Below the pieces are notes generated by a model. That model was not told where the DNA came from. It saw only the letters and a program-made list of their open reading frames with translations, and searched no databases. Both the position numbers and the translations under genes were made by a program. Positions 50,358-51,815 of a stretch of DNA of 64,000 bases are shown here, piece after piece. Position 1 is the stretch's first letter, and each line of letters begins with the position of its first letter. Source of the stretch: an uncultured virus (IMG/VR IMGVR_UViG_3300007735_000782) (Duplodnaviria > Heunggongvirae > Uroviricota > Caudoviricetes); IMG/VR virus record IMGVR_UViG_3300007735_000782; one strand, 5' to 3'.

Positions 50358-50534
50358 TCATTCCGCGATGGTGGAGGGAGCGTAGGTTAGGCGGCAGTAG
50401 CGTTCGGGGTGGAGCAATTGACACGCAGCCAGACCCTTGAGATCATCCTGAGGCTGGGGCGACAGGCTGATGGCTAGTCCCAGAATGGTGGCGCTAGCCG
50501 CTAGGAGAGCAGCGCTATGGACGGAGGTGATCAT
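50358..50534 (-). CDS. Small membrane protein with CQxxHxxxYCR motif
   Basis: Hydrophobic N-terminus then 'CQLLHPERYCR'. Confidence 0.6.
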   Translation of the reverse strand: MITSVHSAALLAASATILGLAISLSPQPQDDLKGLAACQLLHPERYCRLTYAPSTIAE

Positions 50535-50623
50535 GGCTAACGGAAGGAACATGCGCATATTACAAAGCTGGCTGGATCTTCCGAGGGGATTGTAATTTCT
50601 CTTTACAAAGCTGGCCGGAGCAT

Positions 50624-50646
50624 AAAAAAAGCGGGCCTAAGCCCGC
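50624..50646 (-). terminator. Rho-independent terminator after rlpA-like gene
   Basis: GCGGGCTTAGGCCCGCTTTTTTT on minus strand. Confidence 0.8.
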
Positions 50647-50669
50647 CATTTCCTCACAACCCTCAGCCA

Positions 50670-51032
50670 TTATGCCCTAGACCAGCACACCTTTGCAACC
50701 CCCTGCTCAGGGCTGGCAATTCTGCTGAATGCGCCATAACTCAGATCTAGATCACGGCCTGCAATAAAAGGGCCTCGGTCGGTAACTGTTACGGCCACGG
50801 CCCTGCCATTATTTGGATTGCTAACTAGGAGCCTGGTGCCAAATGGCAGGTAACGATGGGCAGTAGTCAAGCCATGAGCATTGAAGCGGCTACCATCAGC
50901 GGCCTGGCGGCCATGAAAACCATCACCGAGGCCATAGAAACTAGCGTGGGAGCATGCGGATGAGGCCCCCATTGCAGCAGGCGCAAAAGCACCAATGGCA
51001 ATGGAAGCAGAAAGGAAAAATGATTTAAGCAC
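50670..51032 (-). CDS. rlpA: RlpA-family lytic transglycosylase (DPBB) with signal peptide
   Basis: 'ASFYG..FHGR..A.G..FN....T.AHR.LPFGT', 'V.DRGPF..GR.LDLS'. Confidence 0.92.
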   Translation of the reverse strand: MLKSFFLSASIAIGAFAPAAMGASSACSHASFYGLGDGFHGRQAADGSRFNAHGLTTAHRYLPFGTRLLVSNPNNGRAVAVTVTDRGPFIAGRDLDLSYGAFSRIASPEQGVAKVCWSRA

Positions 51033-51140
51033 TGTTTTAGGAAGAAAGTTAGCAAGAACCCGCCAGGTCTCCCTGCGGTAACGCTCAGTTTATCACAAAT
51101 CAAAAGCTTGTGGTTTGACGGTCTTGGTGTTATGATTCTT

Positions 51141-51277
51141 TTGTTGGTCGGTCCTCCCCGCAAGGCTGGACGGTTTTGATAGGAAGGGCTATCCCGTAAG
51201 GGACGCCGGGCGCTCATGGTTAGCCTGCAAGGCTTCCTATCCCTGTGTTCAGGAGCGAAGCTATCGGAGGCCAACAA
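51141..51277 (+). ncRNA. Candidate structured ncRNA
   Basis: Extended -10 TGTTATGAT upstream, closing helix TTGTTGGTC/GGCCAACAA, internal helix GATAGGAAG/CTTCCTATC, GNRA-type hairpins, terminator downstream. Confidence 0.7.
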
Positions 51278-51282
51278 ACAAT

Positions 51283-51314
51283 AAAAAAGGGGGCCTTTTG
51301 GCCCCTTTTCTTTT
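51283..51314. terminator. Bidirectional terminator
   Basis: AAAAAAGGGGGCC-TTTT-GGCCCCTTTTCTTTT. Confidence 0.8.
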
Positions 51315-51492
51315 AGCTTTGTTCGTCTTCAAAGCTGAAAAACTTATCAATCTCCAGCCATATACGATCTTCAATGGCCTCGAAGATTAGTTCGTCATGA
51401 GGTTTATCTACGTGCTTAAAGGCACGTTTATAACCGTCTCGAATGCCAGTGATGATAGCTTCTTCGAGCACTGGTCTAAATAGTGCCTTCAT
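51313..51492 (-). CDS. Hypothetical protein (59 aa, not in ORF track)
   Basis: MKALFRPVLEEAIITGIRDGYKRAFKHVDKP...; ATGA-coupled. Confidence 0.65.
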   Translation of the reverse strand: MKALFRPVLEEAIITGIRDGYKRAFKHVDKPHDELIFEAIEDRIWLEIDKFFSFEDEQS

Positions 51493-51815
51493 GCCACTTC
51501 TCCAATGGCAGCAGCATAAGCCACTAAATAAGCCATTTGATCATCAGCAGTGGGTGCTGCAGTGACAATTTCATTGTGCTCCTCGATGTGACGAGCATGA
51601 ACAACTTTTAAAGTGATTAGCAGTTCCACTAATGATGATTGATGGCAATTATCTACGCCTGGCAGTAATTGCTCCAGTGTGGTAATGCTGTTTTCAAGTT
51701 GCTTCACTCGTAACCAACAAGCCACCACTGGGTTATCAAAATTCATCACCAGCCTTGAGCCTAAAAAGGCGCTGGTAGAACCGTTGTATTCTGTTTGGAC
51801 AATGGCAACAGTCAT
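51489..51815 (-). CDS. Hypothetical protein
   Basis: 108-aa ORF. Confidence 0.6.
   Translation of the reverse strand: MTVAIVQTEYNGSTSAFLGSRLVMNFDNPVVACWLRVKQLENSITTLEQLLPGVDNCHQSSLVELLITLKVVHARHIEEHNEIVTAAPTADDQMAYLVAYAAAIGEVA

Follow-up and report, generated by a model that had tools for sequence, protein, structure and literature searches.

What is encoded at positions 51141-51277 of an uncultured Caudoviricetes virus (IMG/VR record IMGVR_UViG_3300007735_000782)? A first-pass annotation, made from the sequence, had read this 137-nucleotide (nt) segment as a stand-alone structured non-coding RNA with segments resembling a twister-sister ribozyme, and had left a permuted variant or a new RNA class as its possible identities. 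The window, that is, the whole 64,000-nt stretch of DNA analysed, is a siphophage genome with PHROGs assignments for tail, portal, protease, terminase, ribonucleotide reductase (RNR), primase/helicase, Sak, exonuclease and ThyX, and its portal protein shares 63% identity with its counterpart in Synechococcus phage S-CBS4. We find that a stand-alone small RNA gene, equipped with its own promoter and an intrinsic terminator, has its core at positions 51141-51277 on the plus strand. The product is very probably a conserved, structured small RNA (sRNA) of an uncatalogued family; for the joint claim that it is such an RNA and that it works as a fold-dependent binder, we estimate a probability of roughly 0.55. 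The gene would consist of the core plus the terminator, an independent unit of ~170 nt carried by an S-CBS4-like cyanosiphovirus.

The fold is revealed by covariation among relatives. When the architecture was written onto a plain MAFFT alignment of 29 representatives (A2) and the pairs were counted, 87.6% of the cells were paired compared with 71.4% after shuffling, and changes on both sides were seen at 43 of the 57 pairs; the slid controls of this alignment were 41-47% paired. A covariance model, R1, with 183 positions and 56 pairs, was built from 29 seed sequences that include the window. Alignment to R1 gave 93.9% paired cells and compensatory changes at 46 of the 56 pairs for 53 distinct rows (A3), and 93.5% and 45 of 56 for 79 distinct metagenome rows (A4). 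In A2, A3 and A4 none of 500 shuffles attained the observed values, and the slid controls overall remained at 40-52% paired. The only R1 match in the window covers exactly 51141-51277 and model positions 1-183 (92.5 bits, E=2.2e-28), a result that is partly by construction, since the window is among the seeds. Matches beyond the seeds include S-CBS4, at 139.1 bits, and all of the 100 metagenome loci tested, some of which are perhaps duplicates of seed contigs. Two points count against us here. A3 and A4 were fitted to R1, so that their pair counts lean its way, A2 being the less biased of the alignments; and the minimum free energy (MFE) z-score of the 137 nt is -0.89 on the plus strand, that is, the sequence alone is not unusually stable. 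Single-sequence thermodynamics was accordingly discarded as structural evidence, being uninformative and favouring the wrong strand (z-score of -2.08 on the minus strand). It is covariation, not thermodynamics, that reveals a fold beyond chance.

Relatives were retrieved by several searches. Searching 100 viral or related sources with R1 gave 74 matches, corresponding to 53 distinct sequences. A core sequence pattern hit 86 viral loci, from which 55 distinct sequences were kept after nhmmer; when 80 of the core-pattern loci and one further locus (L261) were taken with long flanks, nhmmer found the RNA in 62 of the 81, and the other 19 were chance matches of the pattern. Seven pattern matches (L161, L162, L166, L168, L169, L173 and L174) gave no match to R1. 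A second DNA pattern found 11 loci, of which two are homologues, one nearly identical to the window (L125) and one 85% identical (L123), and nine are not. A protein search with the neighbouring DPBB-domain gene product returned 31 viral loci, the closest eight of which carry the RNA upstream on the opposite strand, one of them (L137) being cut by the contig end and retaining only the first 40 model positions. A stricter two-gap pattern found at least 120 loci in metagenome contigs; 100 of these were tested with R1 and all matched, at 77-169 bits, representing 79 distinct sequences. In 185,579 species genomes the same pattern had a single match, L261 (NYTN01000042.1, 20,518 nt), in a metagenome-assembled genome (MAG) labelled Rhodobiaceae. 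A phage contig has probably been binned into a bacterial MAG here, because the viral contig IMGVR_UViG_2786546945_000009 (L223/L310) is equally 20,518 nt long. Its RNA is the most divergent full-length copy of the viral and genome set (94.2 bits) and has no DPBB neighbour. In the collections scanned, the RNA family is restricted to phage contigs.

The family is common, with well over a hundred phage contigs, and it has a cultured representative, S-CBS4, which grows on Synechococcus strain CB0101 and makes the RNA testable. The S-CBS4 copy (138.6 bits by nhmmer) lies on the minus strand at about 64503-64735 of the record, in a 417-nt stretch without annotation that separates gp092 from gp093. 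A blastn search of 50,697 GenBank phage records with this copy returned S-CBS4 alone, with no annotated feature under the match. Searched by blastn, the RNA of another member (L192) had no match in the GenBank phage records, and a 1.3-kb region of the window had none in plasmids and GenBank phages. DNA nearly identical to the window was found in metagenome runs from river, lake, drinking water, wastewater and other aquatic sources.

In this architecture, P1 closes a three-way junction. Its first arm, domain A, consists of P2 with a CC-GNRA-GG hairpin, and its second, P3, leads into another three-way junction formed with P4 and P5; P4 in turn opens into a third junction carrying P4a and P4b. 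Threaded on the window, the consensus fold has an energy of -50.4 kcal/mol, compared with -53.2 kcal/mol for the MFE structure, and the individual MFE folds of the 29 representatives converge on one architecture. Pairing reaches 99.7-100% at the six junction-proximal pairs of P1, where as many as 4-5 pair types occur per position; U-G stands at the second P1 pair in 40 of 51 sequences and in 63 of 79. P2 is 99.5-100% paired and shows C-G/U-A covariation at one pair; in the hairpin inside it, P2c, CC/GG is invariant and the loop varies as GNRA. Compensatory changes occur at all six pairs of P3 (96-97% paired) and at eight of the nine pairs of P4 (99.2-99.6% paired). In P4a, the outer and loop-proximal pairs covary, and an irregular middle lowers overall pairing to 81-85%. 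The P4b helix occurs as GGGC/GCCU, GGAG/CUCC, GAGG/CCUC, UCGC/GCGA or CCCG/CGGG, around a loop that contains a conserved (G/U)CAU(G/U) and otherwise varies (GCUCAUGGUUA, UUUUUGCAUGGU, CUAGUCAUU). All five modelled pairs of P5 are compensatory, but the hairpin varies in length, and in the model alignments it is 74-86% paired.

Six helices had been proposed for this segment at the outset. All are present in the window, and covariation upholds five of them: P1, P2 with CC-GCAA-GG, P4, the inner P4a hairpin (TCCC-GTAA-GGGA) and P5. The sixth, AGCC-UGCAA-GGCU, fails: it is 66.5% paired compared with 64.1% after shuffling, and in 26 of 51 and 34 of 50 sequences the outer pairs do not form. GCCU pairs instead with GGGC (51208-51211), as P4b. 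GCAAGG serves as a junction strand that nearly all individual folds leave unpaired, and its GG is near-invariant. Helices additional to those first listed are P3 (51172-51177/51257-51262), the outer part of P4a (GGC/GCC) and P4b.

The nucleotides conserved in at least 90% of A3 gather at the central junction, as UCGGU.CU, CCG..AGGGUG.AC and AUCGGAG. The J3/1 strand AUCGGA is invariant in alignments A1 and A2 and at least 90% conserved in the A3 consensus. The window has the family junction core UCGGUYCU, CCGNRAGGNUGRAC and AUCGGA in the form of UCGGUCCU, CCGCAAGGCUGGAC and AUCGGA, with a C at the position where most members have a G of GGGUG. All other members have two additional hairpins, P2a (loop UUAAUUG) and P2b, between GGUCCU and CCGNRAGG; both are absent from the window, L125, L123/L133 and L172, which keep the junction core. 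We read the window copy as a natural minimal form, not excluded from the family by its lack of P2a and P2b, and as such it offers a minimal construct of 137 nt for structural work. The differences between L123 and the window respect the fold: P4 reads GACAGGAAG/CUUCCUGUC instead of GAUAGGAAG/CUUCCUAUC, a compensatory change from U-A to C-G; P5 reads CCUU/GAGG instead of CCUG/CAGG (G-C to U-G); the P1 3' strand reads GGCCAAUAG instead of GGCCAACAA, creating new G-U pairs on the plus strand; and the P2c loop is GUAA instead of GCAA, both being GNRA. A scan for pseudoknots over all unpaired column pairs in A3 found no run of adjacent pairs; the top-scoring unpaired column pairs involve the N/R positions at which GNRA loops vary and suggest shared ancestry.

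The gene boundaries are likewise conserved. Among 51 distinct relatives having full flanks, a TAnnnT hexamer lies 3-6 nt 5' of the modelled core in 50, a TG stands two bases upstream of the hexamer in 49, and a terminator-like hairpin with a U-run follows the RNA in 47 by a crude test. Together with the covariation, these counts bear out the first-pass view of a stand-alone RNA with its own promoter and terminator. Both the extended -10 element and the terminator are present in the window as that annotation had described them, and the promoter call rests on conservation, because a promoter scan lists no plus-strand promoter at the RNA gene and the -35-like hexamer matches at only three of six positions. 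The TTGTG of that hexamer also occurs in L123/L133. The host RNA polymerase would start a few bases 3' of the extended -10 element and the transcript would end at the terminator. The terminator scan reports the G+C-rich hairpin with U-runs (51286-51309) on both strands; it is bidirectional, also closes the convergent minus-strand genes, and has a stem that covaries among relatives. Coordinates are collected in Table 1.

Table 1. Positions of the RNA gene, its structural elements and the adjoining DPBB gene in the window.
Feature	Position	Strand	Sequence or remark
-35-like hexamer	51108-51113	+	TTGTGG; 17 nt 5' of the -10 element; weak, 3/6 match; putative
Extended -10 element	51128-51136	+	TGTTATGAT (TG-T-TATGAT); conserved in relatives
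Structured core	51141-51277	+	P1 5' strand through P1 3' strand; sole R1 match in window
P1	51141-51149 with 51269-51277	+	UUGUUGGUC with GGCCAACAA; DNA form TTGTTGGTC/GGCCAACAA
J1/2	51150	+	G
P2	51151-51154 with 51168-51171	+	GUCC with GGAC; within domain A (51151-51171)
P2c hairpin	51158-51165	+	CC-GCAA-GG, inside P2; GNRA loop
P3	51172-51177 with 51257-51262	+	GGUUUU with GAAGCU; covariation
P4	51178-51186 with 51233-51241	+	GAUAGGAAG with CUUCCUAUC; DNA form GATAGGAAG/CTTCCTATC
P4a hairpin	51187-51207	+	GGC-UA-UCCC-GUAA-GGGA-C-GCC; covariation
P4b hairpin	51208-51226	+	GGGC-GCUCAUGGUUA-GCCU, with GCUCAUGGUUA as loop; covariation
Junction strand, P4b to P4 3' strand	51227-51232	+	GCAAGG (GNRA-like + GG); mostly unpaired
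P5 hairpin	51242-51253	+	CCUG-UGUU-CAGG; covariation
J3/1 single-stranded junction	51263-51268	+	AUCGGA; adjoins P1 3' strand; conservation
Intrinsic terminator	51286-51318	+	AAAGGGGGCC-UUUU-GGCCCCUUUU and U-tract; terminator scan, both strands
Secreted DPBB/RlpA-like protein gene (context, not RNA)	50670-51032	-	Pfam DPBB_1, E 3.6e-21

The locus is flanked by two open reading frames (ORFs) on the minus strand, 50670-51032 and 51313-51492. We assign the RNA to the plus strand because, among the 2816 paired cells of A3, 346 are G-U/U-G and 35 are A-C/C-A, and because the GNRA and UUCG loops can be read as such on the plus strand only. A 136-amino-acid ORF on the minus strand (50867-51277) runs across the RNA gene and into the start of the DPBB gene; given the plus-strand covariation, it is almost certainly spurious. 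A small peptide product of the RNA was considered and rejected: an AUG in the P4b loop of the window opens a frame of 22 codons, members of the L175 type have no AUG at that place, and the helices change in compensatory patterns that are non-synonymous-like. ARAGORN found no tRNA or tmRNA gene in the whole 64-kb window.

We then compared the RNA with known families. None of the 4227 families of Rfam 15 matches anywhere in the window at its gathering score. In a permissive scan, the only match to the core was twister-sister (RF02681) at 51153-51226, with 14.2 bits compared with a gathering score of 34 and E-values of 4.3 when 501 nt were searched and 1.4 for 166 nt. Of the checks proposed with the original annotation, cmscan against Rfam gave no support for twister-sister, and the covariance model built from homologues gave the covarying fold (46 of 56 pairs). 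The other sub-threshold matches (His_leader, sraA, SraG, ctRNA_p42d and PrrB_RsmZ) lie on the terminator or far below their cut-offs. A hammerhead was also discarded: RNAs of the L192 type read CUGAUGA, but only UGA/GA is conserved, forming the base of P4, and no Rfam hammerhead model matches. Twenty other family members gave no gathering-level match to Rfam, and no twister-sister match at E<=0.1.

Could the RNA still belong to the twister-sister ribozymes, whether in standard, circularly permuted or rearranged form, and cleave at the C-A step of GCUCAU? The two strings that had suggested this are literally present: the pattern CCGCAAGGC-N25-55-GGCGCTCATGG occurs once in the window and in none of 100 shuffled versions. 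CCGCAAGGC and GGCGCUCAUGG are identical to the two core strands of the Rfam consensus, at a spacing within the natural range, and a phage context is typical of the class. The 20-letter pattern is found at at least 118 loci in viral contigs, and mostly retrieves true twister-sisters: 18 of 20 loci scanned scored above the Rfam cut-off, full-length ones with 56-91 bits and one match truncated by a locus end with 42.8 bits. Chance matches of the pattern do occur, however, as in the G+C-rich, coding-like L054 and L073. In its structural description, twister-sister has an internal loop L1, flanked by P1 and P2, in which two conserved strands face each other (PMC5660989); a P4-SL4 hairpin docks its conserved loop on L1 through contacts T1 and T2; and the conserved L1 nucleotides are G5, C6, A8 and G9 on one strand and G59, C60, U61 and A63 on the other (numbering of PMC5660989).

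The locus departs from this description in several respects. In the RF02681 alignment, CCGCAAGGC and GGCGCUCAUGG fall on the two L1 strands, but the whole SL4 hairpin is deleted and P1 has 2 base pairs. The only SL4 look-alike, CCUGCAAGG, stands 3' to the two strands and is made up of the P4b 3' strand and a junction strand. The five pairs of twister-sister P1 and P2 are 41.0% paired among 53 distinct relatives, compared with 40.8% after shuffling, and the first two P2 pairs each occur in 7 of 52 sequences and the third in 46; in L123, GUAA replaces GCAA and GGAU replaces GGCU, so that P2 is broken. Neither strand is conserved. Across the family the supposed L1 5' strand is a GNRA tetraloop closed by CC/GG (GCAA, GUAA, GUGA or GCGA). 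On the other side, GCGCUCAUGG is limited to one sub-clade, with only the (G/U)CAU(G/U) loop elsewhere, and GCGCUCAU is kept only in the sub-clade of the window, most members having UGCAUGG or GUCAUU, so that the equivalent of U61 is a G or absent. What the RNA shares with RF02681 is therefore two short strings equal to its L1 consensus strands, the phage and viral metagenome habitat and the best sub-threshold Rfam score; unlike in RF02681, the strings here sit in the GNRA hairpin of domain A and in a hairpin loop of domain B, are not conserved across the family, and come with no SL4 and no supported P1 or P2. Elements of a different, covarying fold account for both strings. Membership in the twister-sister family is refuted, and we see virtually no chance for a permuted or rearranged version of it. 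A resemblance over 20 letters, however striking, can be coincidence. The alternative offered at the same time, a new RNA class, holds: there is a covarying fold with no Rfam match.

Around the true twister-sister loci retrieved by the pattern, we observed that L009, L016, L049, L053 and others carry 2-3 twister-sister ribozymes within ~1 kb, about 270-570 nt apart, and that a type II hammerhead (L001) and RAGATH-5 (L020) lie near pattern loci.

On this evidence, the RNA is a new class in the sense of a sequence and structure family, 'new' applying to the class and not to the function. The literature on S-CBS4, as represented by titles and abstract openings, describes no such RNA. A catalogue of structured-RNA candidates from IMG/VR (Fremin et al. 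2023, PMC10690425) reports 8495 candidates, 1241 of them with a predicted Rho-independent terminator, which like ours are covariation-based predictions from the same kind of viral contigs. None of the available passages of that paper describes this RNA, and its supplementary text, three files excepted, contains neither the family core motif in DNA or RNA letters nor either of two contig identifiers; the family may be among the unnamed candidates of the catalogue. The passages do mention the CfrI antisense RNA of cyanophage S-PM2 (PMC10690425). Like CfrI and the PhotoRC motifs, the RNA described here is a non-coding RNA encoded by cyanophages; those, however, are psbA-linked antisense or cis elements of myoviruses, whereas ours is free-standing, multi-junction and found in siphoviruses, and no Rfam model matches it. 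Among bacterial orphan non-coding RNAs, those like the raiA motif RNA are stand-alone genes of ~200 nt with their own promoter and terminator, several junctions and heavy covariation. Our RNA resembles them in being stand-alone and multi-junction, with invariant junction nucleotides and covariation, a comparison made through the Rfam scans only; it differs in that no Rfam model matches, it occurs on phage contigs and it has a fixed protein-gene neighbour.

A hint of expression comes from four runs compared over window positions 50600-51600 (1001 nt) as assembled contigs, not reads. The metatranscriptome X19 (study P14) contains one contig of 168 nt, spanning 51138-51292 plus 13 loose letters, and X20 (study P15), labelled 'RNA?', contains one of 172 nt spanning 51150-51321; in neither of these RNA-type runs does any contig lie on the flanking genes within this interval. 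The DNA runs X3 and X12 cover the whole 1001-nt stretch. The 13 loose letters of the X19 contig match the terminator-loop variant of L125, and the contig carries U51192C and A51203G, which turn a U-A pair of P4a into C-G. These contigs hint weakly that the RNA exceeds its neighbours in abundance or stability; it counts against the hint that they give no strand, ends or level, that X20 is guessed to be RNA and may be DNA, and that DNA can contaminate RNA libraries.

How might such an RNA act? Stand-alone RNAs with at least 50 covarying pairs and invariant junction cores are rare, and those that have been solved are ribozymes, aptamers or ribonucleoprotein cores. The invariant junction strands, the freely covarying helices, the several GNRA elements and the dispensable peripheral hairpins point to fold-dependent action; the minimal variants (window, L125, L123 and L172) lose P2a and P2b yet keep the junction core. 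The RNA would act in trans through its three-dimensional fold, most likely by binding a host or phage protein for which it is a decoy or scaffold, or by binding a small ligand. We hold this mechanism, taken by itself, tentatively, as the leading one among those considered. The conserved unpaired stretches are all 7 nt or shorter, and the RNA probably does not act by long antisense pairing.

Two features of the locus speak for other mechanisms and weigh against a trans-acting binder. One is that J3/1 and P1 together read AUCGGAGG, which is Shine-Dalgarno-like, and that the P4b loop contains CAUG, so that base-pairing is possible. The RNA could then be a regulatory sRNA in which the exposed P4b loop or the Shine-Dalgarno-like segment pairs with mRNAs of the host or the phage or with the 3' end of 16S rRNA, the structure serving as a stabilising scaffold. 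Such a role would suit a stand-alone gene ending in a terminator hairpin, as in many sRNAs, as well as the conserved unpaired AUCGGA and (G/U)CAU(G/U) loop and the apparent abundance in RNA-type libraries. We nevertheless consider it unlikely: the conserved unpaired stretches are short and the P4b loop is variable in sequence; a complement to that loop (at least 10 of 11 positions) occurs in the 64-kb window only at its own locus; and 56 conserved pairs with invariant junctions exceed by far what a scaffold needs.

The other feature is the near-absolute linkage to the DPBB gene, which lies upstream and divergent, back-to-back with the RNA, in 58 of 62 RNA loci and could point to local action or action in cis instead of in trans. 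The RNA might be a riboswitch or attenuator of read-through at its terminator, or a regulator or insulator of the back-to-back DPBB promoter; an aptamer-like fold with a terminator directly after it would fit, and in L133 the next gene is co-directional. We give this only a faint chance. Downstream genes are convergent in the window and at most loci, and orf59, the ORF that follows the RNA, is inverted between the window and L133; the downstream neighbour is thus not fixed, which argues against a leader or riboswitch role. The P1 3' strand does not overlap the terminator stem, leaving no antiterminator. The RNA lies on the strand opposite to DPBB, and the linkage is broken both ways: L261/L310 has the RNA without DPBB, and 22 loci with more distant DPBB genes have no RNA, which is also absent from the first 50 kb of S-CBS4. 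The four exceptions to the linkage comprise two loci at contig ends and two that represent one contig, L261/L310, where the neighbour encodes a DUF2786/DUF7168 protein.

The invariant junction amid freely covarying helices could also be the active site of a new class of ribozyme, whether it cleaves itself or has some other activity. GNRA elements suit tertiary docking, the multi-junction fold is compact, and small ribozymes are plentiful in phages. Known self-cleaving classes usually reside within longer transcripts, however, not in genes with their own promoter and terminator; the X19 and X20 contigs cross the RNA unbroken, which is a weak argument, and no Rfam ribozyme model shows similarity. 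A new ribozyme is therefore highly unlikely. A bolder idea, that the RNA is an RNA-only phage weapon, appears decidedly unlikely. It would be either a free-standing aptamer, an 'RNA sponge' that early in infection takes up a nucleotide used by the host in signalling or immunity, or a ribozyme of a new class. The binding or active site would then be made by the two multi-helix domains, a GNRA-GG strand closing each of them, and the ribozyme form would be built around the UCGGUYCU / CCGNRAGGGUGRAC / AUCGGA junction. If the RNA does manipulate its picocyanobacterial host, it would add an RNA-level layer to cyanophage-host biology.

The gene neighbourhood shows further regularities. The DPBB neighbour of the RNA in S-CBS4 is gp093, annotated only as 'lipoprotein precursor', which contains DPBB_1 (E=8.3e-23). 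On the other side, the minus-strand ORF 51313-51492 (orf59, 59 amino acids, no family) adjoins the terminator. Its homologue is convergent to the RNA in the window and L130 and co-directional in L133/L123 (1030-1200 on the minus strand of L133), with 47% identity; this switch of orientation is a local inversion right at the bidirectional terminator. A homologue of another ORF, orf108, is found at 36 of 62 loci, downstream of the RNA and on the other strand. Following the DPBB gene in the window is a minus-strand gene for a 66-amino-acid protein (50358-50558) with a conserved QLHPERYCR-like motif, present at 46 of 62 RNA loci. Finally, conservation is also seen in the spacer between the RNA and DPBB (51066-51098), in the blocks GGTCTCCC and, on the minus strand, an extended -10 resembling TGTGATAAAC. 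On visual inspection, the spacer looks like the promoter and leader of the DPBB gene, which would make this a compact bidirectional promoter region.

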